A DNA stretch of 64,000 nucleotides, taken from the NCBI RefSeq assembly GCF_002571385.2, contig NW_019217838.1:212286-276285 (forward strand). Reading direction: 5' to 3'. Source of the DNA: Stylophora pistillata. Taxonomy: Eukaryota. The notes under the pieces are model-generated. The model searched no databases, was not told where the DNA came from, and was given only the letters and a program-made list of their open reading frames with translations. This document shows positions 34,745 through 61,789 of this stretch, piece by piece; the first letter of the stretch is position 1; each line of letters opens with the position of its first letter. Made by a program: the position numbers and the translations under genes.

Positions 34745-37700
34745 TCAGGGTTTGTAGGCTTGGCTGTTATGTATCTTAACATTTGTAGTCAAATATTCGC
34801 GTGAAATTTGTGTTGGAATCACAACACCACTGGATGAAGAGCCATCCAATCTTATGGCTTCTTGAGTTTCGCCAGCATTTACAAAGAATCTGTCACTCCC
34901 TGACAACTTGACTGAGGTTTGTCGCGTTGTCCACGTCTTTTCATCGTGCATCTCGACTTTTGGTGACGAAGAAATGTGTTTTATTTCCACGGGAATGACT
35001 GCGCTACCATTAGCTGGGGTCCCTTCTAATGTTACAGCCTGGCGCACCTCACCGGCGTAAACAAAATTTCTGTCTTTCACTGCTGGCAATCTACTTGTAA
35101 TTGTTTGAGTTGTTAAGTTCTCACTGTTATGTATGACTACTCCAGAAGAAGAAGAAACTTGTGTCACTTCAACGGGAATTACCACCCCGTCGGAGGTCTG
35201 AGGTCTTTCTGACTTCAAAACTTGGCGTGTTTCCCTTGATCGAACGAACCCTGTCTTTTCCGGTGGCAATTCAGTCAAATAATACTTTATCGACTGCTCA
35301 TCTTTGTAATTTCCAGTCCTAGTAGGTGCTTCCTGAATTTGGACGAAGAAGGCGTTGTCAGTGCCACTAACCAACTTATTTGAATCTCTCGGTAACATAG
35401 ATGTTGTCGTTGAATGCATTTTTAGGCCTCCAGAAAAGGATTTCAATGCTCCCCATGACTCCGTTAACGGTATTGGTGCCTGTAATCGCCACTGTTCGTT
35501 TCCTTTGGCTTCAACTTTCCACTCATCCCTTAACTCTTTCTTTTCAAGTATTTTTCCACCCAGTCTATCCTCTCCTTGAAGAAATTCCATTTTATCTGCT
35601 GAAAGCCTGTTTCCTTGCAGAAGTTGTTCTGATTTCACTTCTTTCTGAGTAACTACCTGTGCTACCCACTCTTCAGTTATGAGCTTCTCAACATTGGCCG
35701 ATGGTTTATGTTCTTTGACTTCTGAGGTGAAAACGCTTTCGTTAAAGTCGGGAATGACAAGTCTGTCAGGGCTGGATTTGTCAAGCTTTTTCTCGGGCTC
35801 TGTATCTTGGCCTTGAAGAAACTGCATTTTATCTCCTGAGAGCCTTTTTGCCCGTACAGATGGGTCTGATCTGACTTCTTGAGTAACTACTTGTGTTACC
35901 CACTGTTCACTTTTAAGCTTGTCGACTTTTGGTGATGATTTATGTTCTGTGACGTCTGTGGTGAAAGTGGCTTGATTAAAGTCGGGAATGACAAGTCTGC
36001 CAGGACTAGATTTCTCTAGACTTTTCTCAGGCTGGGTGTGTTGACTTTGAAGAAACTGCATTTTATCTGCTGAGAGCCTTTTTGCCTGCACAGATGGGTC
36101 TGATCTGCCTTTATCCTTAGTAACTACTTGTGTTACCCACTGTTCAGTTTTTAACTTGTCGACTTTTGGTGATGGTTTATGGTCTGTGACGTCTGAGGTG
36201 AAAGTAGCTTGATTAAAGTCGGGAATGACAAGTCTGCCAGGACTAGATTTATCTAGACTTTTCTCAGGCTGGGTATCTTGACTTTGAAGAAACTGCATTT
36301 TATCTGCTGAGAGCCTGTTTGCCTGCAGAAGTTGCTCTGATCTCACCTCTTCTTGAGTAACTACGTGTGTTACCCACTCTTGAGTTTTAAGCTTCTCGAC
36401 TTTGGGGGATGGTTTATCTTCTTTGACTTCTGTGGTCAAAGTGGTTTGATTGAAGACGGGAATGAGAAGTCTCCCAGGGCTAGATTTATCTCGCATCTTT
36501 TCGGGCTGTGTCTCTTGGCCTTGAAGAAACTGCATTTTATCTGCTGAGAGCCTTTTTGCTTTTACAGATGGGTCTGAGCTGACGTCTTCTTGACTAACTA
36601 CTTGTGTAAGCCACTGTTCACTTTTTAGCTTGTCGACTTTTGGTGATGGTTGATGTTCTTTGACGTCTGTGGTGAACGTGGCTTGATTAAAGTCGGGGAT
36701 GACAAGTCTACCAGAGCTAGATTTATCTCGCATCTTTTCGGGCTGTGTCTCTTGTTCTTGAAGAAACTGCATTTTATCTGCTGAGAGCCTTTTTGCCTGT
36801 ACAGATGGGTCAGATCTGACTTCTTCCTGAGTAACTACTTGTGTTAGCCACTGTTCACTTTTTAGCTTGTCGACTTTTGGTGATGGTTTATGGTCTGTGA
36901 CGTCTGTGGTGAAAGTGGCTTGATTAAAGTCGGGAATGACAAGTCTGCCAGGACTAGATTTTTCTAGACTTTTCTCAGGCTGGGTATCTTGACTTTGAAG
37001 AAACTGCATTTTATCTGCTGAGAGCCTGTTTGCCTGCAGAAGTGGCTCTGATCTCACCTCTTCTTGAGTAACTACCTGTGTTACCCACTCTTGAGTTTTA
37101 AGCTTCTCGACTTTGGGCGATGGTTTATGTTCTTTGACTTCTGTGGTGAAAGTGGTATGATTAAAGTAGGGAATGACAAGTCTCCCAGTTGTGGTTTTTT
37201 TTAGACTTGTGACGGGCTGTTTATGTTGGCTTTGAAGAAACTGCATTTTATCTGCTGAGAGCCTTTTTGCTTGCAGAGGTGGTTCTGATTTGACTTCTTC
37301 GAGTGTGATTTCCCGGCTTACCCACCCATCAGGTTTGTCTGTTTGGTCTTTGGTCGATGGTTTGTTTTGATTGACCTGCTTTGTTGAAGTCTGTTGAGTT
37401 AAGTGGGGAATGAGAATTCTGTCGCCGTGAGATTTGGCGTGTGTGATGTTCTGTGTCGTCATGTTTTCTGTATTTCTTGCTGCTAGAGGTCCTTTTTCCC
37501 TTTTGGTTCTGGTTATTGAGTGCTCTCTATAAGCCTTTGACCCAAAATTCTTTTGAGAAGTTGTTGGATTTGAGACTGAGTAAGAGTGTGTTGTTGACTG
37601 CTGAGTTCCTTTTTTTATCACTTCATTGAGTTGCCTTTTTTGTTGGGATGAATTTTTGGCATTGTTTTCTGATATAGATACCATATCCAGTTTGGATAAT

Positions 37701-39677: not shown

Positions 39678-39708
<31 letters not shown>

Positions 39709-42700: not shown

Positions 42701-45700
42701 AGTGATATCATGATAATTTTAACATTGGTGACGTAGATATCACTCCGGGAATATAAATACTTATTGTGAACTATCAATGAGTAGTTAACACAAGTGATAT
42801 AATTTGAAGTTTAGAAAGATATGGATAATTCCAGTAATTTCAAATGACAAGCACAAAATAAATAGTTTGAAAATACCACAGGTAGACTCTCAAGTTTTCA
42901 TTATATTCGACCGACTACTTTACCGCAAATGGCATGACACGTCTTAACAAAGTATTGGAAGCAGCTGTTTCTTAGTAACAAAGATATTGTTTTAAAGAAT
43001 TGTAGTACTTTACTTCAAATGAAGGACTATGGATCGGATGTTCCAACTTCCTGTTTGTGGCCTCTTGAAAAAGATTTTTTGCGTGATTGTTACCGTAGAG
43101 ATCGCACGCATCCACTTTTTATCCGGAAGCGGTAATAAGCCAATTTAGAGGATAGCACAATCAATGTAAGGAGACCGTGTTGCTATGCCAAGAAACTGCG
43201 GAGTGAACATTACATGCGTAACCAAAACAAACAATCAAGAAATCGAGTTGCAACGATATACAAACATAAATAACGGTCGTTTCGTTAACGACCAGTTCGC
43301 TGACGTCTTAGGTCATTTCGCCAAAGTCTCAGATCAGTTTGCTAACATCTCGTGAATCATTTCGCTAACGTTCTAGGTTAATGCGCTAACGTTTCTTTAT
43401 AGTTTGTTTTCTTCGAAGTCGCGACAAAGAAAATGTACCTTAACACACGGGCGAGATCGGCCAAAAATGCATTGAGATCGACCTTTTGAAGTCGCAGCGA
43501 TTGTATGAACCGAATCAACTTTCAGTTTGTATTGAAATGACTCAACTCTTCCCTAAGACTTTTCGGTCAATTAGAAGTCGATCATGTTCTGGCGATGGAA
43601 TCATTAAATGTTATGAAATGCGTTAGCGAAACTAATTATGAGACATTACCTTACTACCCTGAGACGTTGGCGAAACGACCTAAGACGTCTGCGAACTGGT
43701 TGTCAACGAAGCAGTTACCCTGATGGTGCATTGTTAGGTTTTTGTGTCGTTCAAAATTGTTTCTCACTGAAAAAAAAAAAGCCAGAGCGACAGGAAGTAC
43801 AAATAAATGACTCAACAAATAACACTGCAATCGAGACAAAAAGTCAGGCTTAATTTAAATTATTTATTCCAAATGATTGACTTACATATAATTCAAGTCC
43901 TACAAAGACAACACCAATTACAGTTTCTGTAATTTGAAGAACTATTTAGCGGGCGCAAATTTTACAATTTGAACCGGTCAACTATGAATTTATACTTTCA
44001 CCCCTCTGGGTCTGTTTTAGGCCTGATGTAAAGCTGTTTAATTCTTTGAAAATGAGCTTTCAAATAGCTACCTTGTTGTGCTATAAATCTACTTGTTTCC
44101 GCCGGTCAAAAGATATTTCGAATTCTGGTCTGAATATCGACAAAGCGAATAGTGGGGATTCTAAGTAAAGCTAAAGTACGGACCCTTGGTGGGTGATAAT
44201 GAAAAGGTTCGCTTAAGTCTGGAGCCCTTTGTGGGTGATGTTCCTTTCAGTGAGGGAATTGTGTGCCCTCAAAGAGTGATTCTGAAAATTTCCCAAATTT
44301 CCCCAATGCTTATACATGCACTACCATCCCTATCAAGAGTGCATTATCTTCTTGTCATGTATTACTTAAGAACTACACACCCCAAACAATATGGCGGTTC
44401 GGTAAGTAAAAGACTGTTTAATAATGCGTCATGCGTGCGCATGAGCAAACCATATATGGTAGCACACAACATACAACACACTGGAAAGCCATAACACTTC
44501 TCTAAGAATATCCTGATCAATGTCGTTTTGGAAATATTACTTTACTTATTCATACTACGACAGATCAGAGACGATCGTGACATCGTAGTGGCAATTAACA
44601 TGTAACTTCTCCTAATAACACTTTACATTGTTCAACAAACAGGTGATGAGAATACGCTCACTTATCTGGTAGAAGCTGTTGTTACCTTGACCAGAAAACA
44701 AATTCCCGTAACTAATTTACAAGGAAATGTGTAACAGATAGAGGGGAGAATTCACAATCAGATCTTGAGAGTTAAAAGAGTTAGTGATTTCTCGGTGCTT
44801 ATGTTTTATCTTGTTACAAAATTTTGAAAAAACCTGTGAAACGACTCCGCGAATTGTTGATATCTAAAAGACTGATATTTATATCAAACCTTTTCTTTTA
44901 TAATTCTACGAAAAACGAACTTCGTTGAGAACTGAGGGGTACAGCCAGTTCTTCGACATCTTTGTTCCATAAAAACGGGCTCTCGTTTGTGATTTTAGAG
45001 TTATGCGTAACGAAGAATGATGACAGTCAACAATGCATCTTAAAGTCACATTCTTCAAGAGTTAAACCATTTCTTGTCGACTTGGTCATTAAAAAGAGGT
45101 TAATCATAATGAATTGCTTACAGATTTAAGTAAACAGTAACTTAACATTGGAAACATATTTCATATTTACCCAAATTTTACTTTAATGTTGACTATTTTT
45201 TTCAAGTTTTCGCCATTTTCTTCTCTTTCTTACGTTGATTCTCAGATGGTGAAGGAAAGGTGGTCATACTCTGACTTGCTAATACCAAAACTGTTAATGC
45301 TGTGTACAAAAAAGCCTTATAAATCCAATTACGTAAAAAAAAAAAATGCTTTTAATAGCAGTAGGGTATTTTATTAAGTTATCTTAAAGTACGCTGAGCA
45401 CGCTAAAGCGAGATGTGCCTTCCCCCCCCCCCTGCCCTTTTTTGTATCATGATATAAGAACCCCCAAAATTAAATTTAATCAAACGTGAATCGTTCGTTG
45501 TCTGGACCCACCGAATTTTTTTAAATTTCAATACAAAGTTTATCGTGATTTTTCTAGCTACCCAATTAAGCTCTAATCACTACATCATAATATATTTCAT
45601 TGATTATTGAAAAACATTCGTTGCTCAAAATGCAATGCTTTTTGGTCTTGGCTGGCGCCCAGACGTCCCTCTTGAAACAGCGGAGGGAGGCTGGGAAAGA

Positions 45701-48700
45701 TTGGAGTCATCTTGCCATATCAATAAGTCCACGTTCCCAATGCTCTTCGGTCTCGCACGCTTTTCACTCTTTGCACGCCGGAGCTGTACTGGTTCGCTGT
45801 TGCTCTTCTCAAAGGCAGCAAACATACTCGTGTTGAGTTTCTTAGGAATTGGTTTTTCCTCTGGAGAGTATGACTACAACCAGAAAACCTCAAGATTATT
45901 TATCATAGCAAGTGTATCGTTAAACAACTGTGCCACTGGAACTCTAAGCCAAAACTGTGTCCAGGCATGAGCAAACGTGGATCATCCAAGAAGAGGCGAA
46001 ATCTTGTGAAAACCGACAACTGAACTTATTTCTTACGAACCAAATGCCAATCTGTTTGTTTTTCTCTTGGAACTGGCCCATAAGTTGCTCACAAAATGTA
46101 GTTTTGCCTAGGCGCCGTTCTACTACGTTACATAGTATTCTTTTTCTTTTCATAAAAAAGTTAAAATTTATTAAGATACCAGTCTTTGGAACTGTTCTAC
46201 TTCTATCAGTATGGCTGTTCAAACATGTGATATAGTCCATTTATAATTTTGAAAATGGGACAAATTAAACGTCTATGTATCCGAATTAAAAGGTTTCATT
46301 CGTTCCCGTCTTCTTGTTCGGAATTTAGTTAACTTTGTTAATTTCTACATAAAAGTCTTAAGTTTACTTCTTTTGGTGAAAGAACAGGTCCAATAGTAAT
46401 AGGTGAAAATAATATGTGGAAAAGTGTATTAAACACACCTCAATTGTTATGTCTTCCACTTGAGTTTCTTGACTAGACTCCCTCCTTAAAGAAAGCATTC
46501 GTGTTTAAATATATGTCTTAAAGGGAAAGTACGGTCTAGAAAAAGTTTACTTATATCAAAAGTTCCTAGCTTGCGTTGTCCTAACTGGCTATTCATTTGA
46601 GCTAAAGCATTTTAGTTGCGAGCAATTACGTTCCAAAAATCTGCATTTTAAAATTGAAATCCGCCATCTTTGTTATGACGTAGCAATAGTCAAACATGCT
46701 AATTATATCCCTGCTGGAGTGGATGTGAACAAGAAGAACAGCGGCGAGGGGGGCGCTACTTGTTAAATTCTCTACTTGGATTTTAATCTAGCTGAGAGGA
46801 TGTAGTACACCCATTTATGTTTCAAACGAAACATGGCTCGTTTTCAGGGGAAGGAGATGCTTCCATTGGGGAGAAAGAGAGAGAGAAAGTCAAGAAAATG
46901 AATTTCAAGATGAAACGTCGACCCGCTCAGTCGCACACGTCTTGGAAATCGCGCGTGGTTCTCTTGCAGCAACTGTCAAGGGAAACCTACGGAAAACGAG
47001 AATGTGTCCTCCTAAGAATTAAATGTACCAGGACACCGACTCAATTTGATCATGAAAAGCAAAGGCTTTTTCTTCAAATAAATCCTCGCTCTTGAGTGAT
47101 AGTTATTTTGCTAAAGAAAACGGCAGTGCCCGCTACGGATTCATTTTACATTGCTACCTCGGAATGAGATGAACTATTTTTGCACTTACAGGAACCAAGC
47201 TTCGGTGTATAACTGAACACGAGCCACTTGGAACTAATAAGATCAGCCCCAATTGGCATGCAACAAGTTAGAAATGATAGACTTGCATTTTGAAGATCAT
47301 TCTTCGTAGGCGTAAACACTGACAAACACTTAGTTGCCAAAATTAACGCAGACAAAAGGTAGAAGTTAATTGTTACGAATTCAATTTTGTTTGTTTCAGC
47401 ACTTAACTTTAATTTGGGAAAGGTGTTTTTTATCTTTGTTACTTGGAATTAGCTTCAACGCAGTATTTTTTATTAAAATATGTTTGAAATGTCGCGACTT
47501 GTGTGAAGTAGAGCATTGTTATTTTCGACGCGCGCCGGAAAGTCGCCTCTATCACACACTGTTTACATTAGAAATAACCTCAATATAACTGAAGCTAAAA
47601 TGAAACTCGATTTCTTTTGAAAGCACAAGCACTGTATAATTACATCAAGTAGTTGGTTGGAAGACATAAAAAATTTTATATTATTTTAATTGTGTCCAAT
47701 TGATATGATATAGTGAAATATGGGCGCCTGCCTGACGAAGGATAATTTGTATTTGTCGCAAACGTGACTGTTTTGACAATTTACTAGCGATATATTGAAT
47801 GTCATTTAGTTTTTTCGCAGAAGAATGTGACTGGTGGGGTAAAGAAAATTTACACGGTGAACTCATAACAGACTTAGGAAAGACAAGATATATTTGTACA
47901 CCACTTGGAAAGGCGCATGATGTTGGAAATCGGCTTTGGTCAAGGGTAACGACTGAAAATTTACCACACAGTGTACCACCATTCCGAGCTTCAACTTATT
48001 CGCTTACAATAAAATGGTTTGCACAAACTCATAGAATAAATAACTGAGATTTGTGTTGAATATGGAAAAGGAAAGTATAGCTTTCAGTTCGAAGCGAAGG
48101 TCAACAAGGAAAACTTACATGCTTGTATATCTCACTGGAAGTCTTCGTTTTGGCAGTTCTGAGGTTTTGCAGGGTTCGTCAAGCCGTCGTCGTGGGTTAT
48201 TTTTGCCGGCTAACTTTTCTTTAATATTTCACATTCCAGTAACTTGTGGAGGCTTACACTTTTTCCTACTGAATTTTAGTATGTATTTTGAGATTCAACC
48301 ACAGGACAGTTGACCTCATTTCAACTATTAGGAGTATTCGAAATTGTTTTCACAAAAAGCCAAACTGGTCAACAAGGACAAAGTGCCGAACTAAGTTTGA
48401 CTATTGCTACGTCACAATGACGTATATCCAAGATGGCGATTTTCTAACCCCGAAAGTTGTAAAAATGGGCAACTTCGAAGCGCTCTTGTCGCTAATACAA
48501 AGCAAACTAGACAAAATGGCAGTTATTTTCGAACTCATGAGGAAAAAGTCTTCTAATTGAGATAACCTTTTTCTAGACCGTACTTTCCCTTTAAGGATAA
48601 GCATGTCTATCAAATCATAGCAGTTTTGGTTTCTTTTGTTAAAACTGAACGTGTCGAACGTATTCTATCTACACTTGAAAAACCTGATTACGACTAAAAC

Positions 48701-51700
48701 TAAGCAACTTTTATCGGTATCTCACGCAAGTATGTTACACTAGAAGTTTTCTAATGAGCTCTTAATGAACCATGAGTCTCGCACCGTGACTAAGAGTAAA
48801 ATTAGTTGATAAACTACAAGGTTTGAAATGAAATCGTATTTACCTCTCCAAGGACGACAATTTTTCAAAGGTACCAGCGGTGCCATTCATATCTTTATCT
48901 CGCGCCCCAGAAGACAGACTTTCACCAGAAATACTGCGGAGACTTTCAATCGAGTTTGTCCTTGTAGATTCCTCGTCTGTCAGTGATCTTGGGCCTTTGA
49001 TCTTAGTGGACTGACGACGAGAACTTGAATTTTGGCTATCACTTTCAAATTGTAAACGAAGTTCCTCCGGTAAACGACCAACACCAACACCTTTATCAGT
49101 ACTCTCTAGCTCATGTTCCTTGGGTTTCGATGTTTTTCTTTCAATCTTTTCAGAATCGGAGTCGGAAATTGATTTCCTGCTTCCGGTTTCCAGTGTCTGA
49201 ATAAGATCACTCTCTTTCTCATAGCCTGCGTCTACTTCCGTTTGCATCCGCCTTTGTTCCTCTAATCTTAACTTGGCCAACTCTTCCTGTTCCCGACGCA
49301 TTCTCTCCTCTGCCATTCGTTTAGCACGCTGTGTTCTCTCAACTGACTCGTGAGACCTGGCATTCAAGAACTTATCCACATCAAGTCTCTGGCCTGCGTT
49401 GATCTTTTTCTCAAACTCAACATCTTCTTGAGTCTCAGAGGGACCCCCGCGGTCAACATAAGCTTCGTTCATATCGACTGGAGAGCTTTCAACTACCTCC
49501 TGGCTTTTGACATTGACAACTTCTTGGATTACTTGCGGATCCTGCTTGCGCGGTTTTGCTTTCGGGGCGACTGATCCTTCCTGCTGGAACACAGAGAATT
49601 GTTCGTAATTCAGTTTTCCAACACTCTTGGGTTTATCACTCTCTGCTTCACTAGCACGGAAGTCCAAACTTCCCTCGGCAAGCAATCTTCTCCTTTCCTC
49701 CTCTTGGCGAAGCAGTTCTTTCTCATCTCTTTCCCGCTGGAGACGCATTTTCCGCCGGGCCGTTTCGGAATCATCCATTCCGAGAATGATAACACTGCCA
49801 TCATCATAATTCTTTGTCCTAATCTCTTCATTAATTTCACACTCTTGTATTTCAGCAGGTGTAGATTGAACTTCTTCCCTCTTTTCAACCACGATTGAAC
49901 CTTCCCTCTGGGTTTTTCTGGGTCTACCGTATCCTCCCGCAGCATCCTGTTCAAAGACACTAAACTTGTCGGCGCTAAGCCTGCTTCTTCTTTTTTCCAA
50001 AGTGCCAACAACCTCAGAAGTAGAATCGTCGTCCTGAAACCTTAACATTTCATTACGTTCTTCTCTTAGCCTTTGTTCCTCTAATTCTTTGGCTCGCCGC
50101 TCGTTTTCTTCGGCTTGCTTTCGTTGCTGTATAATATACCAGTCCTTGTCTAGTTTTCCAACACTCTTCCGTTTTTCTTCGTAGTCTGCGTCTTCGGATA
50201 GAAAAGATCCTCTATCTTCCTCAAACGGACTGCTTTCAATCAAATCAACAGAGGCCACTTGAACAGTTTCTACATCAGCTTTTGGTACCTTGGGTTCTTT
50301 TGTTACCTTCTGCTCGTACCGGGGTTTTGACTTCAGCTTTGGTTCTTCCGTAGAATTTTGCTGAAATTGCAAGAACTTGTTCGCGTCAAGACGCCCTACA
50401 CTGTAAATATCCTTCTCAGAACGAGTCACAGGAACATCATCAAAGATGCCGGTCTGGAATTTCCTTTTAGCTGCTTCTTTTTGCCGACGCATTTCCTCCA
50501 TACGCATCTGCTCCTCTTCTTCTTCTCTTCGTAATCGTTCTTCTTCTTCCTCTCTAACTCGTTGAGCCTCTTCACGCCGACGCCTGTTTTCTTCTTCTTT
50601 ACGAGCTCTCGCCTTCTCTTCCTGCCTTCTGATTTCCTCTTCTTTGCGGATCCTCTCTTCTTCTCTAGCACGGGCTTCAGCTTCTAGCCTCTTTCTACGC
50701 TCTTGCTCTTTTTTGAGTAATTCGCGCTCCTCGCGTTCGATTCGACGTCGCTCCTCTTCTTGAAGTCTTTTACGCTCTTCTTCCTCTTGCTTGCGAAGAA
50801 AATTGAACTGGTCTTGACTTAACCTCTTAACAAGTTTGGATTTCACTTTCACCTCGTACTCATCGTGTTCGTTTCCTTCAAGGAAACCCGTAGCAGGTGA
50901 AGACTCCACAAGTTCCTCATCAATCAATTGAACAAGCTCTTCTTCCTGCACAAAAGGATCAGGTGAGGTTTCTTTTGGTACTTTACTGGGCTTCTGTTCT
51001 GGTTTAGTTTTCAACACGGGTGTCTCATCTCTCGTTTGCTTTTGCAAGAAAGGACTCTTGTTAAGGACGAGCTTGTTCACCTGCCCTTTTTTCACTTTGA
51101 GATCGTATTCATCCTCGACAAACTCGTCATCTTTTTCTATAGCAACTTCAAGATTGCTGTCGTCCTTGGACGTGGTTTCCGTAACCAACAGGTGTTGACT
51201 TTTTACGATTTCCTTTTTGGGCCTACCAGTACTTGCGGGCTCTTCTTTTTTCTCGTTCATAAACTGAACAAGTAGAGTGGGATTGATTCTTCGAATCTCC
51301 TTGGTTCGAACTTTTGCTTCGAATTCGTCATCAATCGAGTCTTCATCTTCCTGTTCAATGGATTCAAACGCTTCGCGTTCCCGTCTTCTTTGCTCTTCTA
51401 TTCTGGCACTTTCAATTTCCTCCAGTTCCTGCTGTTTTCGTTTTTCTTCCACTTTGCGCCATTCAGGAATACCGTCGTCTTCAGTTTCCTCCTCGTAACT
51501 CTGCAAGATCGCTCCACCAAAGTTGACGACTTCAGGCTGGCGAAAAGAAAAAAAAGACCAATCACGCTTTTAAAAAAAAGTGCACAGTCTGTTCACGGAC
51601 ACCACATCACACCCGAGCTTCTGTTCAGTATGGAATGTTTCTGATTATTTCAACACAGTCAAATTTAATATCAGTGATCCATATCAACGACGTTTAATGC

Positions 51701-54700
51701 TAGTCTGCGCAATAATTTTTCACGCAAGACTTGAATTTATTTATACCCAACCAGGGAGGTGCGTGAGCTTTAAAACAATGCCTTCCAAGGACATTAGCAC
51801 TGTGAACTCAAATTGGAAAGCAACAGTCGATATTTCGTGATATAGCGTTACATGGGTGCCGCCGTATGGTCCTTAGTGTAAAAAAGAAAACAGGAAACAA
51901 ACAAAAAGCACCTTTTTTTCATACTGCAGTCGCAGAACAGAATTATGAGACTGCACTGCGTTTGTTATTATCAAGCCAGATCGCTCTACAGGTTAACAGT
52001 ATATCAAACGAAAGAAAGGTGTGTGTTCGGTTGCAATAAGTAATCTAAAGGGTGCCTTGCGAATTTAGTGTATGGTTCGAGTTGATCTAATGCGTGACAT
52101 GCCGCTTGACAACATACTTTTAACTACTTGGTACAAACAAAACACGTATGATCGCGTTCATGTGGATCGTTAAGGACAACGGCATGCTTGAATACCTTAT
52201 TTTCCTCTTCCCAGTCTCTTCTTGGTGCAGACTCGACAGTAGAGTGTTCAACTTTCTCTACGTAGATTTCGTCTTGGATAATTCTGGCGCTGCTGGACTC
52301 ATTCCGGCGGTAGTCCGGTACGCTATCCGTTTCCTTGGATTGAAGAAAAAGACTGTTAGCCAGCTTCAACTTTCTGATTTGTCCACTCCGTACTTTCTCT
52401 TCATACTCATCCTCCACCTCTCTTTCTTGGTCTCCTGCGGAGCGGTCTTCGAAGGGGCTGTCAATAACAGGTGTAGATTCTGACAAAGAGACACTGGATA
52501 CATCTATTTGTTGCTCTTTGGGTTCCATCGATTTCAGGGGTCTTTCTGATTCTTTGTCTGCTTCCTTCATGAACTGAAACAACAGATTTGGATTAATCTT
52601 CCTGACTTCATTTGTGCGCACTTTGGTTTCAAACTCGTCGTCACTTGAATCAAGTTGCTGGTGTGACTCCTCTTCCATAGCCTCTCGTTCCCGCCGTCTC
52701 TTTTCCTCCAGTTTTGCTCTTTCGATTTCTTCCCGTTCCTGTTGTCTTCGTTGCTCTTCTACCTTTCTCCACCCTGGAATATCATCGTTGTCATCACTTT
52801 CCTCCTCATACACGTAGGTGTAAAGCGAAGATGAGAGAGGCTAAAAGTGATGAATGTACTTTAGCTGAAAGATGTTTAGCTATGATCTAGGTGGAGGGCA
52901 TTGGGTTTTTCCGTTTCCAAATCGAAATCGGTTTTTGCTTTTTCCTTTCAAAGTTACATCTTTTGCTGTTGAAAACCCTTTTCACTCCCAAGATCTCATT
53001 AGTAATTACCCTTACTGCCTGTCAGACAATTCTTATAATGTTAGGTTCGAAAATTTGGTATTGTATCATCTAATAATCCCGAAATTGATATTTGTCTTTA
53101 TTTTCATTACAAGTGTTCTTGATATTGTATTGATATTGTAAGGAGAGATTCTGTCTTGGTAACTCATGGGAGTTAAAAAGGTTAGCATCCGCAGCGGTAG
53201 TAGGTTCTTTATTGCAGCATCAGCAAAGCTATCATGCGTTGAAAAGCATTACTGCTAAAGTACCCTTTGGAACCACCCCTCTTTACTAAAACGTGACACC
53301 GAACTCCTATCTGTTTGTGATCTTGCGTGAAAAAGTATCCCTCGATACTTATCCCAAGGGTATCTGGAAGTTTTCCTCATCCCATGTTCGTCCCTTACCA
53401 CCTTAGCACGTTCGCCACATTCAGTAAAATAACTTCGCTCCACCTTTACCATTTCGTCTCAAAAAATCTTTCAACTTGTTTCCCTTCTGCAGAACGTCCC
53501 AAGGTGATTTAATTCTAAGGTTCAGAAAATATCATCACAACATATTATTGAAGCCTTACCTCACTCTCTGTTTTAAATTCACGAACCGGGCTGCAAAGGA
53601 AATAAATCTCAGATTAACTGTGCTCTTTTTCTCTTCAACAGATTATGAAAATAAAATAATGTCGATAGATGTAAAACTTAGAGATCTTATCATCATGAGA
53701 CACAAAATGAAATCTGAAAAGTTGATAATCGGCGTAAAGGATTTATTACATGAGATTTCCATTTGTTGGGTAAAAGATGCAACAACTGATTTCTTTCCGA
53801 TTTCATAGATTAGTTGAAACTGACGTAAACGATTCCTTTTGGTAGTGACAAGGAGTATTTGTTCAACATCATGAGATTATTTTAGTTAGCGATCACTTCT
53901 TTTAATCAGTGATATTGTTAGGAGAAATTAAGCGCTAGACACCCTTTGGGGTATAGAGATTAACGCGCACAGTCTCCTTGCAACATCAATACAATGTTTG
54001 GCACGCAGGAAATGAGCACAAAGATACTTAACAGCAGAGGGTGTTACAATGTGGCAGCAAATTCCCTGAACTGATCAAGAAGAAAACGTAGCGTAGTTGA
54101 AAAGGACAAATATGGGTCACACTATATGTAATTTCTGACGTTTGAGTGACATGGGAACGAATTAGTCAGAAATTAATATTCTGACAGCACGTTGAAGAGG
54201 TTCGCGTGGCATCACGGTAGTTTCGGATTGTTTAAGCATTTCTTGGGAAAATTAAGTCATTCTAGGTCCGTCAGTCTTAGGTTTGACCACTTTCTTTTTT
54301 CTTATTTACTGTAATTTTGTTTTACAACTCTCTGTAAAATATCACTGCTTTCATTGAATTTTCTGTGTGATTAGTAGTGTAACTAGGTTTATTTTAATTA
54401 CCCTTTCCTCGGGGTACAGTGCTGCTGCATTAGATGAGGAATACGTTTCCACGTATATTTTGGCCACTTCTAAAAGAGTGCTTTTTTTTTTAGTGGTTTT
54501 TCGTATCTGGCGTAGCACAGGCTATTTTTGTATTATATTTTCAGTTTCAGTAAATACTTGCAGTACATTGCAGATTCTACAAGGATACAACAAGGCTGGC
54601 TGAATCATCCTAAATAAACTTTCACATTGAATATCTCGCCTGAGTGTTGTCTGAATTTGAAGTTTACCCTCTACACCCTAACATCAGTATGCATATTCTC

Positions 54701-57700
54701 CATACTGTTCAAGTCTCAATACATTTCCTAAGGCGTTGACAAGGAGAATTTGTTTAACGATCAAGAGTTTCGTAAGTTGGTGATCACTTCCTAGATTCTT
54801 GTTACCTTAACAGGTCATTTTGGTTTCTGTTGTAAGAATAAATTAGATTGACAGAGCTGAATAATGAAATGCTACGTCAGTGGGTTGCGGTCATCAAAAT
54901 TTAGCGGCATTTTCCTATTTCCAGAGGTTTTAAGGAGAAAATTAATTTTTGAAAATTATTAGGGGGTGTACCAAGTTTTTGGAGGTTGTTCTGTAAAAGA
55001 AAAGCGGCAAGGAAAACCGCGAAACAACAGAATAGGAAATGATTCATGCGAACGACTCAAAACCCGTGCTTCCGCGGCAAAATCTAGCGCATGCGTGTAC
55101 GCTATTCAGCTCTGTCAATTAGATGCTAGTCACTCTAAAGAGTCAAAGGGTCAGAAAATAACCAAATGTGGCGGTAAAAAAATGTAATGAAGTGATTTTG
55201 CGCCAAGAGCAGTTCTTAAAACCTTAATTTACCTGATGTCTTCCATTTCAGGCTCAGTTTCCTGAACTTTCACTTCAGCTGGCGGGAGAATCTCTTCTTC
55301 ATAGTTAACAAGTGGCTTTTCATACCGCGAGGTATGGGACGCTCCTTGTGTCTTTTTCAGTGCCGGTCTCTCTTCTGCATTCGCAGGTGCTTGTTGAAAC
55401 CCAGCAAACAGAGAAAGATTTAGCTTTTTTGGTTGGAAATTACCCGCTTGCTCCCACTGTTTCTCCTCCTTTGTGAGTAGTGAGTTGTGAACTTCAACGG
55501 TATCGACTCGAGGGACCCTCTCTTCTTCACTTTCGCTTTCGCTGTCACTTCCTTTATCACTCTCGCTTTCACTCTCACTGCTGCTTTTTAAATCATGGCT
55601 TTCCGTCTTGACCTTCCTTGGGACTGGCTGAGGAGCAAAATGTAGAAATTTTAAAGCGTATTTTCACGAGAAATAGACCTGCGCAATATGTCAGAAGGGG
55701 ATATTTTAGCAGTCTCGCTACGAGCATCCTATCCTAGGTGCTCTCATTCCTCGCGTGTTTCCTTCCTTGCGCGTCTTCTATCAGCCTGCTCTTTCCTAGT
55801 CTCGATTCCCACTGGGAAATGCAGTGAAATTGATGTTCAAACTAAACATGTTTTGCTGGTGTGGATGGGGTATCAGTCCGGTTGAGAGCAGTGCAGTGCA
55901 GTGCAGTGCAGTGCAGTGCAGTCCATACTGAGTAGATAGAACTTTAACCTAAAGGTAGTCATTCCTTTTTCCTATAATTTATCGACAGGTTCACCCAGGC
56001 TAAGAAAATACAACATTTACATGACGATGCTATTGCTTTATGAGTTAAAATCTATCGCTTATGAATTAAATACTCAAGCTACCTGGGGCGGACTTGCTCT
56101 GTCTTGACCGTTGCTGAAAAAGAGCAATAACAGGAAATGTCTGTGAGTACTTAAATAAAAATTAATACAAAAAAAAAATCGATCTTAACCAGACAGTAAA
56201 AGGAAGGGTAATTTTAAGAGTTAAGTACTATTGCCTGGTCGCTTTTTATTTAACAGTAATTCGGTCTTTGGTTTGAGTAAAAGAATGCGTGACTTGTCGC
56301 GTGACAAGTGGCGTGACAATCCACCATGTTTTTAAAATGCTAATTTAAAACAACACATCATTATTTCAGAAATCTCCTTGGAATAATTACCACTGCAGTT
56401 TGGTTAAAAATGCCAAAACAGTATTTATAGTAATGATGAATGTTGTGAACATGTAAATATAAGTATTGTGTTTGAATTAAGTCAGCCATACCACAAACAA
56501 CAAATTTAAAACATTTAAAAGATTCTACAAAACATATCAAATAAAGCACTTCGTTATTTATTTGACTAGAATTTATTATCAGTATTTATAGACCCTTCAG
56601 ACCCACGCAAAGCCATTAAAACAATCAAGAGTTCAATGTATGCGACCGCAAGTCTACCTTAGTCGGTGAAAAAGTCATTCAAAGACTCAATTTTGCGAAG
56701 ATTGATCTTAACGCAGCTGTGAAACTTAAAACCACAAATCGACTCAGGAATTCAGGCTTTTAATCCCTTAAACCAACCATCAGTACGTGCCGTTTGAATT
56801 AACCGACAGATCTCCCTCGAATATTGGTAATGAAATTTTCTGTACAAACACACAGAAGATGGCGTTTTACATACTACCTTAACGGTGAAAAAAAAAAAAA
56901 AATCCAGGAAAATTGATAACCTTACTGCAATGGAGGTCAAGCGAGTGGAACGTTAACGGTCCTTGAACGTGATTAAGATACATGATTGTTTGCTCGTTTC
57001 AACTGCAGTCGGTTGTATTTTCATTTAACAGACGGCAAAATTGCCAACGATTTGTAGAGAATCTATTAAAAATTTTCTTACCTTACTTTTCCATCTTCGA
57101 GTTGATTACTCTGACTGTCAATTTTCAATTTCGTTGGCACAAGCGCCGCTTGGTCGTCTTCTGTCTCCCCCTTCATCCAGTCGTATCGACTCCTTCGAGG
57201 CTTTGGTGTCGGTGTTCCTTCGACAGGGGCCGCTTCAGACAAGCTGTGGAACACAGTTTTTTGTAGCCGACCTGGCTGGAATTGTCCAGCGCTCTCCCAT
57301 CGTTGCTCCTCCTCGGTCAAATTTGGGTTGATGTCAGTGTCCGCAGATGTTCGTGTTGTGGTGATAACTTCAACCTCCATGTCTCCTTCGCCGTTCTTCT
57401 CTTCCAACGGATCAAACTGCTCGCCAAAATAAATTGAAACCTGAGTAACAATTAAGTCTGGAAAAATTTAGTTCACTGCTACTCCAAACCTCGATCAATC
57501 TCACGGTATTTTATCAAACGGACCTGTAGACATGCGTGCTATGTAAATTGTCTTGAGAGGCACTCAAGAATTACAATCGGGAGAGTAACTGAGGTGAGAT
57601 CGGTCAAATTTTAACTTGTCTGGTAACGCATTGCATAATTGTGTATCTTAATTCGTCTAAACTTGTCATTTATTTAAATAGACAATAGAGAGACTGCTTA

Positions 57701-60700
57701 TGGAGTCGTTAGACCGTGAAACGGTCCGTTAAGAGATCAAATAAATAATTGTCGTAAAGTTTTCTAAATTTTTCTTAAAAATAACAAAAATCAGAATAAA
57801 CGTGGAAACCCGCAAAGTACCTGTATGAGTATGTATCAAAATCCCGTAATTATAAATTCCTTGTGGGTTCTCGAGAGCATAGGAGAAACAAGTTGAAAAA
57901 TCCGGTTGAAAAAGATGAACTGTGTCGTAGGACATACAAACGCGATGAGAAAAAGGTAAAAAGGTAAAAATGTCTCAAACTTTGACAACACGACCTAGTG
58001 GAGCCATTGCTAAATTAAAACAAGAGATTGGGTTACACAAATACGTGTACCTCTGTAATGGCCTGAGACAATAGTAACATTCATTAGAAAAAAAAAAACT
58101 ATATTTAGGTCAGTAAGTTGGAAAATTTCGAAGAGAGACTTTTATACCACACATCAACATAACGTTATCTTTCACACTCGAAATATAACTAAGTATTCTC
58201 GAAATTTGATGTGCAATTAAAAGCAAGCCACCCCTCAACTCTCTTGTTTTTTTTTTCTTTTTTTAATGATAATCCGTATGAAAATTTGTGTTTGATTGAT
58301 TCTCAGGGGAAAACTGAGCTTCTACCATGATAGGGCCAGTTGTGAATACAGTCCGTTTTTTAAGCTTCAATAATAAGTACTTCAAATATTTTTGTCTTAG
58401 AAATATTGACAACAAAGTTGGATTAATGTTGCGTGTCCGTTATCAAACTTGTATATATGATGGAAATACATTAGCCTTTTTGATAGACACAAGGTGTGAG
58501 ATTCAAATTCTTTCACGGTTGCTATTTGTCAGTCTGTTGTCTTAAGAAAGAAATCGAATTTTAAAAAGTATGCGGACTTTCGTAAAAGTCGGTATAATTT
58601 GTAAAAAATTATCTACGTTGTATTGGTTATGAGTTGTTGATGTCAAATTTCATCTTCAACTTTGACTCTTATTACAAAAGCACCACAAGGTTCCTGCAAC
58701 AATTATTCAACGGCAACAGTACAGTGCGTCCCGAACCGTTTGACAATGATCGACTAGACTGATAGAATGACAATCGACGACTGAATACTATTATTCTTAC
58801 GTCCTTGAAAGGTTTGTTTATTTTAAACAAGTCGAGGCAAATCTAAGCTCAGTTTTAATCCAAAATTGGCCTTATCCCTATGCAGACCGCTGCAACTTCA
58901 GTTATGATGTTTATCAATCAAACAATTTACTTGTACTCACCGACACAGCTTTTTTCTCAAGAGTTACAACTTTGTTGCTTTCTTCAGGCATTTTTTCGTC
59001 TTCGTATTCTTCAAAAGACATCACATTGGTGTGGGGCTCAGAAAATGATTCCCACATATCCAGCAACGAACGTCTCTTTTCCTTGATAGATACATCATGA
59101 TCGTGCCTCTCTTCCTGGCTCTGTTCCTCGCTCCAAGGCTTCACGTCGTTTTCGTACGGTTTTTTCGCCTTGAGCTCTTTCGCTGCCCGTCGTTGGTTTT
59201 CCTCGATTCTTCGCTTCCTTTCCTCGTACTCTCTCTCGCGACGTCTTCGGTCTTCCTCGGCGGAATTACCTGTGCGACCTCTGTTGTCCCATGTCGAAAT
59301 AGGCTCTATGGATGCTGATGACATCCCTGAAGCCTGGTTAACAGAGATTACCGAGATGAGGAACAATAATATACTGTAACACTTCAAGGGCTAGTCGAGA
59401 ACACCACGGATTTGAACGATGTACGATTTGATACTCATTCACTCAATGGTTATGTAGATTAGGTGATACCAATAGAGGGATTAAACATGCATCAAATTTA
59501 GGATGTTATTTTTTTTTAACTAACCGTCGCTAACTGAAATTACTTTTTTATTGGACAAAAGCTAGCCGCCACCCCCCCCCCCTCCCCCCAAATACAAGGT
59601 ATAAATTAAGAATAGCCATTTCTTTCCTTTGTGAACGTGATGAGAAGCTCGGTCTCGCGCCGAACTCACCGCCAAGGTTCCTTCTCCTCTCAAGACTGCC
59701 AGTATTCACTTAGTAGGGTTTTCTCGTGTTTTTTTTCAAACGTTTGGAATGTCAGAATTCTCTTCCCTAATGATAACCATCATCACCCCTTTCGTTTCTA
59801 GTTAAATTAGCCACGAGCTTCGAATAAAAATAAAAAAAAACATGCGTCAGCGAGTGCTGAATAAGCATTTATTTCAGTTCGTTTAAAGGTTGTCCTGTTT
59901 TATCAGACGAAATAAGAGTCTTTTTCCTCCTTGTGCGTTTTGGTCTGTGTTACATTTATATTTTCTTTTCAATCAGCTTCGATTGGTGGGGTCCATTTTA
60001 ACTTTTCTGACCCCACTCACTCTCTTCCCATTCTACACCTACATTTTAAAAGGGAATCAAATTTCGAGCTGAACAGAGATAGGGCGAGATTATTTTTTCT
60101 ATTGTAATGCCTAATGGATCTGTCACCCTCGAAAGTCACTCACCTCGTCAAGGTCTGAAAAGTTCTTAGAGTTAAGCGCGGTCTCAACTTCTCCTTTCTT
60201 AACCACACTGATGGGCGCCTCCATATCAACTAGCTTCGATGGTCTGGGAAATAGCTCTGCTTCAGTGCTGTAAGCCGTCTTCCTAAGCTCTGTTTGCGCA
60301 ACTGGAGATGAGTCCCGCTCAGTACCGTAGGATGGTCCATCGGTGGAGTCGTCCCAGCTCATGAGGTCAACCGAAGTTTCAACCTTTTTCACCTGAGTCA
60401 TGACAATGTCGTCTTCTACTGGTCTTTCTGGTTTCTCGACCTTTTTTAATTGAATCTTGTAACTTTCTTTCTTCGTATCTATTTGGCATTCTTCATTTTT
60501 GACCTCTGTTTTTGGTATTTTTGCGGCATCTGTACCCGTTGAATCCACTTCGCTGTCAGGAGACTTTTTAAAAGTCATCTCCTCGGCTGTCAAGCGTCGT
60601 TTGTTTCGTTCACTGCGAGTTCTCTGCTTCTTGGTACCATCCTCCACTGGACTCTTTGTACCTTCACGAGGACTGACAGCTGAAGAGTCTTTTCCTTCTT

Positions 60701-61789
60701 CCGACGGGCTTCGACCCAACGTGTCTTTAGATTCTATCGATGGCCCTCTCAGAAGCAATCGTTCTCTCCTCTTTTCCATTTCTCTGATCTTCTCCTCCAA
60801 AGAGTCGTCGGATGTTGTTCTCGTGGTCCTCTGTCTAGAGGGGTCACTCCTCTTTCTTTCAACTGATTCTTGCTCGAATATCTTCCGACCCTCTTCAAAC
60901 TTGGCTTTCATTATGTCACCAGCTTTTTTGGGGTCCTCTTCACCTCCAGCATCGTCTTCACGACTTTTTCTCTTCGATTTATCGTCGCCGTTCAATACAA
61001 TAGTCTGTTCAGCACTATACGACTTCACCGGCTCCATCGAGACTGTGATGTCTTCTGACGCTTGGTCAGGCTTAGAAGAGGTATCTTTCTTCTCCGAGGT
61101 TTTCTTTGCTTTCTCGTCTAAGCTAAGACGAAAACGATACTCCACTCTCTCCGTTTTGGTCTCAACCATGGTATTTTCTTTATCGTCATCTGCTGCTATT
61201 TTCCTGTAACAGCCTGTCTCTGGATCATACTCCATCATTTTGCGCCTCTGGCGTCTTGCTTCTAGCTCTTTCTCGCTAATTACACCTGCCATCTCTTCAG
61301 GTTCCCCTTTATCTGTAATTTCCCTTAAAGGTACAGTTTCCTTGGCGGTGGAAGGAATAATAACTTCAGTCCGGTATGTTGTTACTTTATCAAGGCTTGG
61401 CGATATGGAACCTTGCTTTGACCTCTGTGCGTCCAATAGCTTCTCTTCCCGAAGGAGTCTTTCTGCTTCTTGCCGAATGTACTCTCGTTTCTCTTTTTCT
61501 TCCTGAATTCGATCTTCAGCCTGTCGTCGTAACTCTTCTTCCCGCTGTTGCTCCTCTTTGAGTTGAGATGTTGCTTGCTTTTTGAACTCCTCAGCTTTGG
61601 CTTGTTCCTCGAGTAGCCTTTGCTCGGCCTCCCGTCGGATCTCCGCTTGACGCTGTTGGTATTTCTCGAACCTGTCTTCGGCTTCTCGTCGGATTCTTTC
61701 TTCGCGATCCTGGATTTCTTTTATCTTATGTTCGGCTTCTTTTCGTATTTCCTCCTCTCGTCGGACCTGATAGTGGTTCACACGCTCCT
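34745..61789 (-). CDS. Unidentified giant charged repeat protein locus (multi-exon, begins beyond ~61.8 kb; one gene or two related genes)
   Basis: Series of long minus-strand open exons with canonical splice sites and shared peptide motifs: 60144-61789, 58941-59333, 57087-57416, 55233-55627, 52196-52840, 48844-51536, 45625-45873, 42516-42609, 34745-38481. Full exon connectivity is not resolved. Confidence 0.75.
35560..37430 (-). repeat. Coding tandem repeat, 237-bp (79-aa) unit, about 8 copies
   Basis: ctgcattttatctgctgagagcc-type anchor recurs at about 35585, 35822, 36056, 36293, 36530, 36767, 37004 and 37241 (spacing 237, once 234). Confidence 0.95.
38672..39044. mobile_element. Tc1/mariner(pogo)-like MITE
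   Basis: CAGTCAAGCCTGTATTAAGCGG ... CCGCTTCATACAGGTTCGACT inverted ends with internal CCTGTAT-AAGCGG subrepeats. Confidence 0.65.
39211..39244 (+). ncRNA. Minimal type I hammerhead ribozyme-like motif (Penelope-like element associated), slightly degenerate
   Basis: CTGACGA-G-GGGC TAAC GCTC-GAAA-GGTC-AGC: CUGANGA and GAAA core boxes, 4-bp stem II and a GUC triplet. Other copies in the window show GAAACGTC. Confidence 0.55.
39301..39432. repeat. Palindromic element with two tandem-GA motifs
   Basis: TCTGTATGGGAGAATCTTGAC CGAG GTCG..GTACAGAC CGAA CGCAG CGAG GTCTGTAC..CGAC CGAG GTCAAGATTCTCCCATACAGA. Confidence 0.88.
42516..42609 (-). CDS. Candidate small exon I (phase 0 to 1) that would splice in frame to the 3.7-kb exon G
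   Basis: tctcag|ATG CCA... MPLKTVARDKIEDLEDEINTRMLCKTVGNIH, then T|GTAAGA. Its phase matches the phase-1 acceptor at 38481. Confidence 0.4.
43274..43720. mobile_element. MITE with ~60-bp TIRs
   Basis: CGTTAACGACCAGTTCGCTGACGTCTTAGGTCATTTCGCCAAAGTCTCAG vs CTGAGACGTTGGCGAAACGACCTAAGACGTCTGCGAACTGGTTGTCAACG. Confidence 0.75.
45625..45873 (-). CDS. Candidate terminal exon H
   Basis: ttgtag acceptor; SYSPEEKPIPKKLNTSMFAAFEK...RPKSIGN...RPKSIAF*. PKKLNTSMFAAFE matches exon D PKKLNLSLFAGFQ. Confidence 0.65.
   Translation of the reverse strand, partial: SYSPEEKPIPKKLNTSMFAAFEKSNSEPVQLRRAKSEKRARPKSIGNVDLLIWQDDSNLSQPPSAVSRGTSGRQPRPKSIAF
48844..51536 (-). CDS. Exon F (phase 0 to 2), 2.7 kb, with an ER/K single-alpha-helix tract and repeated KL...F motifs
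   Basis: cgccag|CCT acceptor, AG|GTAAAT donor, ORF 48840..51506. Confidence 0.88.
52196..52840 (-). CDS. Exon E (phase 0 to 0), paralogous to the start of exon F
   Basis: ttttag|CCT acceptor, AAG|GTATTC donor, 215 codons; IPGWRKVEE...EFETKVRTNEVRKINPNLLFQFM. Confidence 0.82.
52973..53185. mobile_element. Representative of the abundant ~200-bp TTAACCCTTTAACTCCC-type MITE family (>15 copies in the window)
   Basis: AACCCTTTCACTCCCA...TGGGAGTTAAAAAGGTT ends. Related copies start near 960, 2530, 6470, 8890, 13413, 14565, 15990, 17385, 18345, 21150, 21440, 22040, 23075, 44595, 53840 and 54660. Confidence 0.8.
55233..55627 (-). CDS. Exon D (phase 0 to 2), not in the ORF track
   Basis: cctcag|CCA acceptor, AG|GTAAAT donor. 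Open frame PVPRKVKTESHDLKSSSESESESDK...LTKEEKQWEQAGNFQPKKLNLSLFAGFQQ is homologous to exon C. Confidence 0.8.
55888..55922. repeat. (GCAGT)n pentanucleotide microsatellite
   Basis: Direct reading, 7 units. Confidence 0.9.
57087..57416 (-). CDS. Exon C (phase 0 to 0)
   Basis: gcag|TTT acceptor, AAA|GTAAGG donor; contains LTEEEQRWESAGQFQPGRL. Confidence 0.8.
58941..59333 (-). CDS. Exon B (phase 0 to 0)
   Basis: aaccag|GCT acceptor, TCG|GTGAGT donor, 131 codons with an ER-rich helix and KRRSLLDMWES. Confidence 0.8.
60144..61789 (-). CDS. Exon A of the charged repeat protein (phase 1 to 0), with 18-residue helical repeats
   Basis: tttcag acceptor, GAG|GTGAGT donor, open E/K/R-rich frame (ORF 60123..61781). 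Confidence 0.85.

Follow-up and report, generated by a model that had tools for sequence, protein, structure and literature searches.

A putative multi-motif scaffold gene and a neighbouring tandem-repeat gene in the stony coral Stylophora pistillata

We analysed 64,000 nucleotides of the Stylophora pistillata genome (contig NW_019217838.1, positions 212,286 to 276,285; this whole stretch is called the window, and its numbering is used below), in which positions 34745..61789 are occupied by two neighbouring genes, A and B, rather than by a single giant gene. Gene A lies on the minus strand and encodes 2,256 amino acids (aa) in 11 exons, with its start 2.9 kb past the window end; gene B consists of a single coding exon (34745..38395, minus strand) for a protein of 1,216 aa that is identical to the separately recorded P0006. 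The original prediction, made from the letters of the window, had read both as a single protein exceeding 3,000 aa. That reading gave way to two genes: the last exon of gene A (45335..45873, minus strand) has a stop codon ending at 45,625 followed by a polyadenylation signal (AATAAA at 45,375), with RNA contig ends at 45,335-45,429, and B stands on record as a protein of its own. The peptides that it quoted were all recovered: the ten that are not tandemly repeated map to exons of the minus strand between 45.8 and 55.4 kb, and the eight-copy tandem peptide corresponds to 8 RLS(A/G)DKM(Q/E)FLQ copies at 35.6-37.3 kb.

RNA contigs from 4 of 24 listed runs (X1, X6, X10, and X14, from four studies) were aligned to positions 37,400-57,399; X6 and X14 are RNA on record, and X1 and X10 were guessed to be RNA. 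The RNA-recorded runs that contain this DNA are coral poly(A) libraries. All seven GT-AG introns of gene A within the aligned stretch are present as RNA-contig joints (7 in X1, 6 in X10, 5 in X6, and 3 in X14), giving a splice chain that starts at 57,082, includes both 31-nt micro-exons and exon 9, and continues via a 46-nt exon to the last exon at 45,873. The three upstream introns, outside that stretch, were deduced from GT/AG ends, phase, and orthologues; the junction of exons 1 and 2 is covered by four proteins from other records (P0088, P0205, P0193, and P0209). Among the RNA joints listed, none links gene A to the open reading frame at 38.5-34.7 kb, and gene B has an RNA contig of its own (37,753-38,483, in X10) with a candidate splice acceptor, read from the sequence, at 38,482, 86 nt 5' of its ATG. 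RNA depth over gene B is low; being contig-based, it cannot rank expression. In all four runs contig depth is very high and heterogeneous at about 39000-39600, 44000-45400, 53000-53140, and 54100-55100; these intronic and intergenic stretches are likely multi-copy mobile elements within transcripts.

All exons of gene A are on the minus strand. Exon 1 (L001:2616-2922, 2.6-2.9 kb past the window end) carries the start codon and aa 1-102, ends in a phase-1 donor, and codes for a domain of 80 aa with four cysteines (CxxC-x43-CxxC, then a helix; the Cys4 module); the Nematostella N-terminus is 70% identical. Exon 2 (60144..61789, aa 103-651; intron ends from GT/AG, phase, and orthologues) contains a helix rich in Glu, Arg, and Lys (ER/K helix, aa 104-227, at 61,416-61,787), a charged linker, and a conserved basic patch at aa 489-502. 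Weak Pfam matches of exon 2 to membrane families were rejected, as they begin in an intronic poly-Ile run that heads the translated stretch. Exon 3 (58941..59333, aa 652-782) holds a short ER/K helix, and exon 4 (57082..57416, aa 783-893; donor from RNA contigs, acceptor from orthologues) a copy, at aa 830, of the short motif described below. Two 31-nt micro-exons, exon 5 (56083..56113, joints in X1 and X10) and exon 7 (53560..53590, joints in X1, X6, and X10), flank exon 6 (55233..55627, from RNA contigs and the motif profile), which has a motif copy at aa 970 (55,394-55,432). Exon 8 (52196..52840, aa 1047-1261) combines an ER/K helix with motif copies at aa 1125 and 1201; exon 9 (48844..51536, aa 1262-2158) comprises nine motif copies (aa 1342, 1414, 1497, 1641, 1720, 1778, 1900, 1976, and 2080) and five ER/K segments. 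Exon 10 (46439..46484, 46 nt; upstream joint in four of four runs, downstream joint in three) is followed by the last exon, with motif copies at aa 2184 and 2219 and two RPKSI elements. No hydrophobic signal or membrane segment was found in A or B (maximum 19-residue hydropathy 0.89 and 1.32, respectively), and both proteins are therefore likely intracellular.

The short motif of gene A has the consensus [V/P/I]-[G/R/K]-[K/R]-L-[D/N/S]-x3-[F/W/Y]-x2-[F/L]-[Q/E]. Unseeded motif discovery in the Nematostella orthologue, on record as XP_032241588.2, returned 16 sites, of which 15 were of one type, namely the same motif as in gene A; the odd sixteenth site was left out of the profile. On gene A this Nematostella-derived profile gave 9 matches at 8 bits or more, where 300 local shuffles averaged 0.08 and never exceeded 2; at a threshold of 4 bits the number was 11. 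In A, P0205, P0193, and P0003 the matches numbered 9, 9, 10, and 12 (shuffle means 0.08-0.14). Conservation in orthologues above background, on which the original prediction had staked its case, is thus borne out. At 13 bits or more, all 5 matches in the six frames of 164 kb are gene A exons, one additional match lies in a 20-kb stretch of C297, and proteins with the Cys4 domain, 154,007 residues in total, have none; the three controls, Plexus and two GSE1 proteins, gave 0 profile matches. We count 15 copies in gene A, 11 found by the profile and four variants added by eye; a candidate sixteenth at aa 499 is doubtful. All 15 align with matching copies in two other corals. Across this three-coral alignment the Cys4 domain is 75% identical, followed by the ER/K helices (66%) and the 11 motif copies that the profile recovered (60%); the remaining sequence stands at 36%. 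At hydrophobic positions, 62% of 80 motif sites are identical versus 36% of 378 outside the motif (Fisher p 1.7e-5), and hydrophobicity is kept at 89% of the motif sites versus 57% outside (p 2.4e-8), figures that the copies added by eye bias somewhat in favour of the motif. The spacing of the copies is irregular, at 35-155 aa.

As far as sequence comparison goes, the motif matched no family library searched: the profile gave 0 matches to PDB sequences at E<=10, and the module region scored at best 0.75 against the ESM Atlas, at most a lead. In the predicted structure of each copy, V-G-K-L is extended and D/N/S caps an amphipathic helix of two turns, which has a single aromatic face. The literal pattern from which the motif was first proposed exceeds chance in both genes (4 in A, shuffle mean 0.14, maximum 2 in 1,000; 10 in B, mean 0.04), and a looser pattern is not clearly above shuffles (9 in A versus a mean of 2.9 and a maximum of 10). 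Of the more than 20 copies then counted, 15 stand as dispersed copies in A; the remaining 8 are tandem duplicates in B that score 4-6 bits on the gene A profile and count as a single observation. The acidic segment said to precede many copies is found, by a strict pattern (DE(Y/F)xxK), ahead of 5. A second recurring element of gene A, (V/I)(E/Q)S(A/S/T)P preceded by a stretch rich in Val, Thr, and Ile, occurs in 5 copies (aa 1248, 1471, 1694, 1817, and 1943; window ~49,490-52,240) and in 12 in Nematostella.

Gene A has eight ER/K segments of 28-124 aa, with an excess of i+3/i+4 salt bridges (p<=0.05) in seven of the eight and, in the most favourable heptad register, a hydrophobic share of 12-38%. 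The top-scoring segment (aa 1509-1620, 112 aa; 50460..50795, minus strand), directly 3' of a motif copy, is 75% E/R/K with a salt-bridge z of 7.7, 12% hydrophobic residues at the best a/d register, and no heptad stripe; its AlphaFold2 model has a predicted local distance difference test score (pLDDT) of ~88, and it would be ~17 nm long if helical. For the segment at aa 104-227 the salt-bridge z is 3.4. The segments are predicted to be monomeric single helices of 4-19 nm rather than coiled coils, and three motif copies (aa 1497, 1720, and 1976) lead straight into one. The AlphaFold2 model of exon 9 (9 sequences; mean pLDDT 55, predicted template modelling score 0.21) has long isolated helices, no packed core, and short low-confidence helices at most motif copies; protein A is predicted to be mostly unfolded. 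An architecture of motif copies, single helices, and disordered linkers is very probable, and the multivalent short-motif scaffold with ER/K spacers that had been proposed is supported for gene A, where the motif is conserved in orthologues and the 112-aa helix shows a strong salt-bridge pattern.

The accompanying claim that no globular domain is present is correct inside the window; beyond it, exon 1 encodes the Cys4 domain. For the upstream exons a CH, PDZ, or LIM domain had been considered, and a module of the GSE1/Plexus type was found instead. In a scan of 1.84 billion representatives the module had 209 matches at E<=0.001, and most of the best 150 contain several copies. Nine long carriers were checked by name: five have cluster members called GSE1 or GSE1-like, one is a fly Plexus, and three are only 'uncharacterized'; DUF3736 is present in 17 of 20 long carriers. 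An alignment of 598 copies shows each of the four cysteines at 99-100% conservation, and by sequence the N-terminal domain of gene A is homologous to the GSE1/Plexus repeats. Its model (pLDDT 71.8) gave no significant match in a structural search (best Z 3.6, none at 5 or more), and the leaders, which include FYVE, ZAD, and GATA fingers, do not exceed Z 3.6; no PDB sequence or Pfam family matched significantly, and the ESM Atlas returned eukaryotic clusters without a name only (best 0.94). The module is predicted to be a four-cysteine zinc finger of the treble-clef type, zinc binding being suggested by the cysteine pattern. With the Nematostella N-terminus as query, a homologue search restricted by length found only the query itself among 80 candidates and is too weak to give the range of the family.

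The same genome has a separate GSE1-type gene (G000:C297) with multiple module copies; at least 4 scored Cys4 repeats lie there in two adjacent open frames (L011:5011-7170 and L012; G000:C297:148,000-156,400). A second single-copy Cys4 gene (G000:C237; L013:5247-5506 and L013:9007-10030) has its phase-1 donor at the same codon as exon 1 of gene A, and the in-frame exon after its Cys4 exon encodes ~340 charged residues, probably coiled, without a Pfam match. As the Cys4 exon ends at the same phase-1 position in both single-copy genes, the module appears to have spread as an exon-shuffled N-terminal unit. It may also be optional: some Montipora isoform models (P0002 and P0194) are without the Cys4 exon.

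A homologue search with exon 9 (proteins of 1,573-4,490 aa, top 8,000 candidates scored) found 4 proteins among the scored candidates: one from a sequencing-run assembly (54%), a Montipora capricornis 'trichohyalin-like' protein (50%), another protein (30%), and a Nematostella 'trichohyalin' (29%); relatives in bilaterians or medusozoans may lie beyond this scope. These RefSeq names of the 'trichohyalin-like' kind reflect composition, not homology. Pfam gave no match on gene A at family cut-offs; no paper naming gene A or B was found in the literature searched, from which subscription journals and supplements were absent, and the 'trichohyalin' passages in PMC11876637 and PMC12960093 are not tied to gene A. 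Gene A belongs to no family tested here, and judged by its sequence it represents an uncharacterised hexacoral scaffold family, in corals and sea anemone; the earlier suspicion of an undescribed protein is in keeping with this. Gene B retrieved 14 proteins including itself, the named ones being from Pocillopora, Porites, Montipora, and Desmophyllum and none from an anemone. The accessions of the A and B orthologues are consecutive in both Montipora species, and pieces of each were found on contigs of equal size (66,617 bp), which suggests that the A-B synteny is conserved.

Gene B, at the PFX30144.1 locus, has no ER/K window. Its core is a tandem array (35576..37300, minus strand) of 7.3 copies of a 237-bp (79-aa) unit with 84% matches, each unit carrying RLSADKMQFLQ, GRLVIPDF, and KLKxEQW elements. 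In the orthologues the period is 76-81 aa, and the GRLVIP-type element is present in 8 to 38 copies (12 proteins counted). On the gene A profile, where the background at 5 bits is 2.7e-4 per position, the RLSADKMQFLQ element scores up to 10.5 bits in Montipora, and 5 of 14 B-type proteins have no match of at least 4 bits. Kinship of A and B through the motif is plausible, in which case B would be a possible offshoot of the same motif family. Matches of B orthologues to Gsf2, DUF1199, and similar families were rejected, with no passing stretch. Towards the C-terminus of B (window 34750-35200, minus strand) GVVIPVE, AVIPVE, and GVVIPTQ occur in a repeated beta-prone context that is kept in Pocillopora; we take these V-I-P elements to resemble the IPV motifs that bind small heat-shock proteins.

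The downstream neighbours are an intronless class C G-protein-coupled receptor gene (ANF_receptor, NCD3G, and 7tm_3; 926 aa; 25973-28750, minus strand), an intronless RXYLT1 (18776-20086, minus strand), and MED8, whose exons (~20411-22031, plus strand) stand head to head with RXYLT1; a CBF/Mak21 gene lies upstream. About 31 kb past the window, on the opposite strand, is an ER/K-rich exon of 748 codons (L004:773-3016, plus strand) with no Pfam match and no motif at 13 bits. A 33-bp tandem repeat (4.9 copies, 88% matches) occupies 5296-5457.

Our tentative proposal, to which we give slightly less than an even chance, is that protein A is an intracellular multi-point tether along actin filaments, similar to caldesmon and nexilin. 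Each motif would bind weakly to one repeated partner, and avidity would arise from the motif copy number; the helices and disordered linkers would set the spacing and work as springs, and the zinc module would anchor or dimerise the chain and so cross-link filaments. Many conserved copies of one weak motif, separated by helical springs, would suit a tether that binds a polymer. Actin filaments as the motif's partner, again a possibility a little short of even, are favoured because two positions of the motif (P1: V 7, I 3, P 3, other 2; P4: L 12, I 2, V 1; 15 copies) match the SFM, and because helical segments are described as the means by which caldesmon and nexilin space or cross-link actin. 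The SFM is an F-actin motif (VxxLxxxFE) that forms a short helix in disordered regions, with an affinity of 13-89 uM, and its Phe at P8 is described as essential (bioRxiv 10.1101/2025.04.16.649135).

Several observations weigh against this proposal. A and B and four orthologues contain 0 matches to the SFM pattern, be it strict or loose; Phe is found at P8 in none of the 15 copies, an aromatic residue standing instead at P9 in 10 of them. With the essential Phe missing throughout, the motif would be at most an SFM variant. The only recognisable domain of gene A originates in nuclear proteins, single helices are also described in non-actin proteins such as INCENP and CAF-1, and A and B have no significant BLASTP match to each other (best E 0.08). 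A complex prediction with a motif peptide (36 aa, aa 1631-1666) and L027 as a proxy for the coral actin (97% identity between the two across 253 compared aa) scored 0.02 in both runs; as alignments were unused and the tool is unproven on peptides, this is uninformative either way.

Protein A could instead be a spacer or scaffold on another polymer or contractile part, such as microtubules, the ciliary axoneme or rootlet, or myosin filaments; we regard this as rather unlikely, since its net charge of -96 is atypical of lattice-binding microtubule proteins and no Pfam match to a ciliary or microtubule-associated family was obtained. The motif does begin with basic residues, ER/K single helices are described as binding microtubules in INCENP, and a proteomic study of coral larvae names a 'trichohyalin', which may be the product of gene A or of another gene, among the ciliary proteins lost at settlement (PMC12960093). 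The ancestry of the Cys4 module raises the question of a nuclear scaffold akin to GSE1 and Plexus, in which the module would act within complexes of the chromatin or nuclear matrix while co-regulators dock on the motifs. The other named carriers of the module are GSE1 long isoforms and Plexus, of which GSE1 is described as joining HDAC1/CoREST (10.1101/2023.03.13.532402) and Plexus as a protein of the nuclear matrix, with cysteine-rich motifs considered essential (PMC13322080); moreover, a basic patch of gene A resembling a nuclear import signal is kept to Nematostella. Yet we judge a nuclear role improbable: the genome has the separate multi-repeat GSE1-type gene, gene A has only one module copy, GSE1 and Plexus are without the motif, and the Cys4 exon, missing from some Montipora isoform models, may be dispensable. 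Equally improbable to us is that each motif recruits a soluble regulator, whether calmodulin or some other EF-hand protein, a kinase, a cyclin, or an adaptor, with gene A serving as a platform or buffer in signalling: in such docking sites a basic stretch often precedes a short amphipathic helix, and the conserved C-terminal RPKSI elements look like basophilic phosphosites, but gene A has no IQ motif, and irregular spacing with rigid helices fits, weakly, a spacer better than a buffer. That A and B form one alternatively spliced gene, exon 1 joining the acceptor at 38,482 so that B is a second tail for the Cys4 module, is very improbable: phases are compatible, the frame is open for 29 codons 5' of the gene B ATG, 46 joint rows were left out of the joints listed, and exon 1 lies outside the RNA-aligned stretch, but the X10 contig aligns along its full length and ends at 38,483 without a foreign part, and B starts separately in annotated models of this species, Pocillopora, and two Montipora species.

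Titin and the troponins are described as bilaterian novelties (PMC5167519; PMC13485128) and caldesmon as a vertebrate addition (PMC5167519). How cnidarian contractile filaments are spaced and tethered is therefore an open question, and there is room for an anthozoan analogue of caldesmon. The conservation of the motif between coral and anemone, together with the Nematostella orthologue, makes the filament-tether question testable. The Cys4 module, shared by hundreds of animal proteins with no Pfam family or significant structural match, is in gene A in the single-copy form that is simplest to solve. Should the partner not be actin, gene A would still be a scaffold particular to its lineage and uncharacterised, listed in databases under misleading names. 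A bolder synthesis, which we think doubtful, would make the motif a new filament-binding class one residue longer than the SFM; A a caldesmon-like hexacoral tether with an exon-shuffled GSE1/Plexus zinc module; and B a length-tunable ruler, its three-motif 79-aa unit ranging from 8 to more than 30 copies, added in stony corals independently of titin and nebulin.

Among known systems, trichohyalin resembles A, and titin resembles B, in composition only (A being E/R/K/Q-rich and B repetitive). Trichohyalin has an N-terminal S100/EF-hand domain, and was rejected for gene A, whose N-terminus is the Cys4 module with no EF-hand Pfam match; titin consists of arrays of immunoglobulin (Ig) and Fn3 domains, and was rejected for gene B, as neither gave a Pfam match in B, P0005, or P0010. 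The ZAD (zf-AD) treble-clef dimerisation domain, which recurs among the top fold matches, resembles the module in its CxxC-x43-CxxC followed by a long helix, but the match is not significant (Z 2.9-3.5, rmsd 3.3 A over 58 residues at best; Foldseek E 0.64), and the module has no Pfam zf-AD match. GSE1 long isoforms and Drosophila Plexus share with gene A a CxxC...PFFP...CxxC...QW...RxY module; they have several repeats of it (up to 7 detected), mostly with DUF3736, whereas the single copy in gene A has the first exon to itself. DUF3736 (PF12540) is absent from the A orthologues, and Nematostella GSE1 and a fly Plexus likewise score no match. The SFM and the gene A motif are both short motifs of disordered regions, helix-forming in the SFM and predicted to be so in gene A, with V/I at P1, L at P4, and an aromatic residue then Q/E near the end; the gene A motif differs in its aromatic residues at P9 and P12, Gly or basic residues at P2-P3, helix cap at P5, and 15 copies per chain. 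Nexilin (NEXN) has repeated PGKL-initiated segments followed by ER/K helices, and a C-terminal Ig domain; gene A is about three times longer, and no Ig family match was found by Pfam in its last exon or in full orthologues. Nexilin has been proposed to cross-link actin at a set spacing (PMC11640418). Of the caldesmon/nexilin-type architecture first suggested for this locus the predicted single-helix spacers remain, without a caldesmon or Ig Pfam match; for caldesmon, seven exon translations of A, P0002, and P0004 were searched at E<=0.1, and P0205 and P0193 at E<=0.001. Caldesmon (CALD1) is nevertheless like protein A, in which the helices are predicted, in being an elongated charged chain with long ER/K single-helix spacers and no large globular core. 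It is described as having single helices and filament-binding ends, with a myosin site at the N-terminus and actin, tropomyosin, and calmodulin sites at the C-terminus (PMC13102872), whereas gene A has 15 motifs scattered among eight helices and a Cys4 head.

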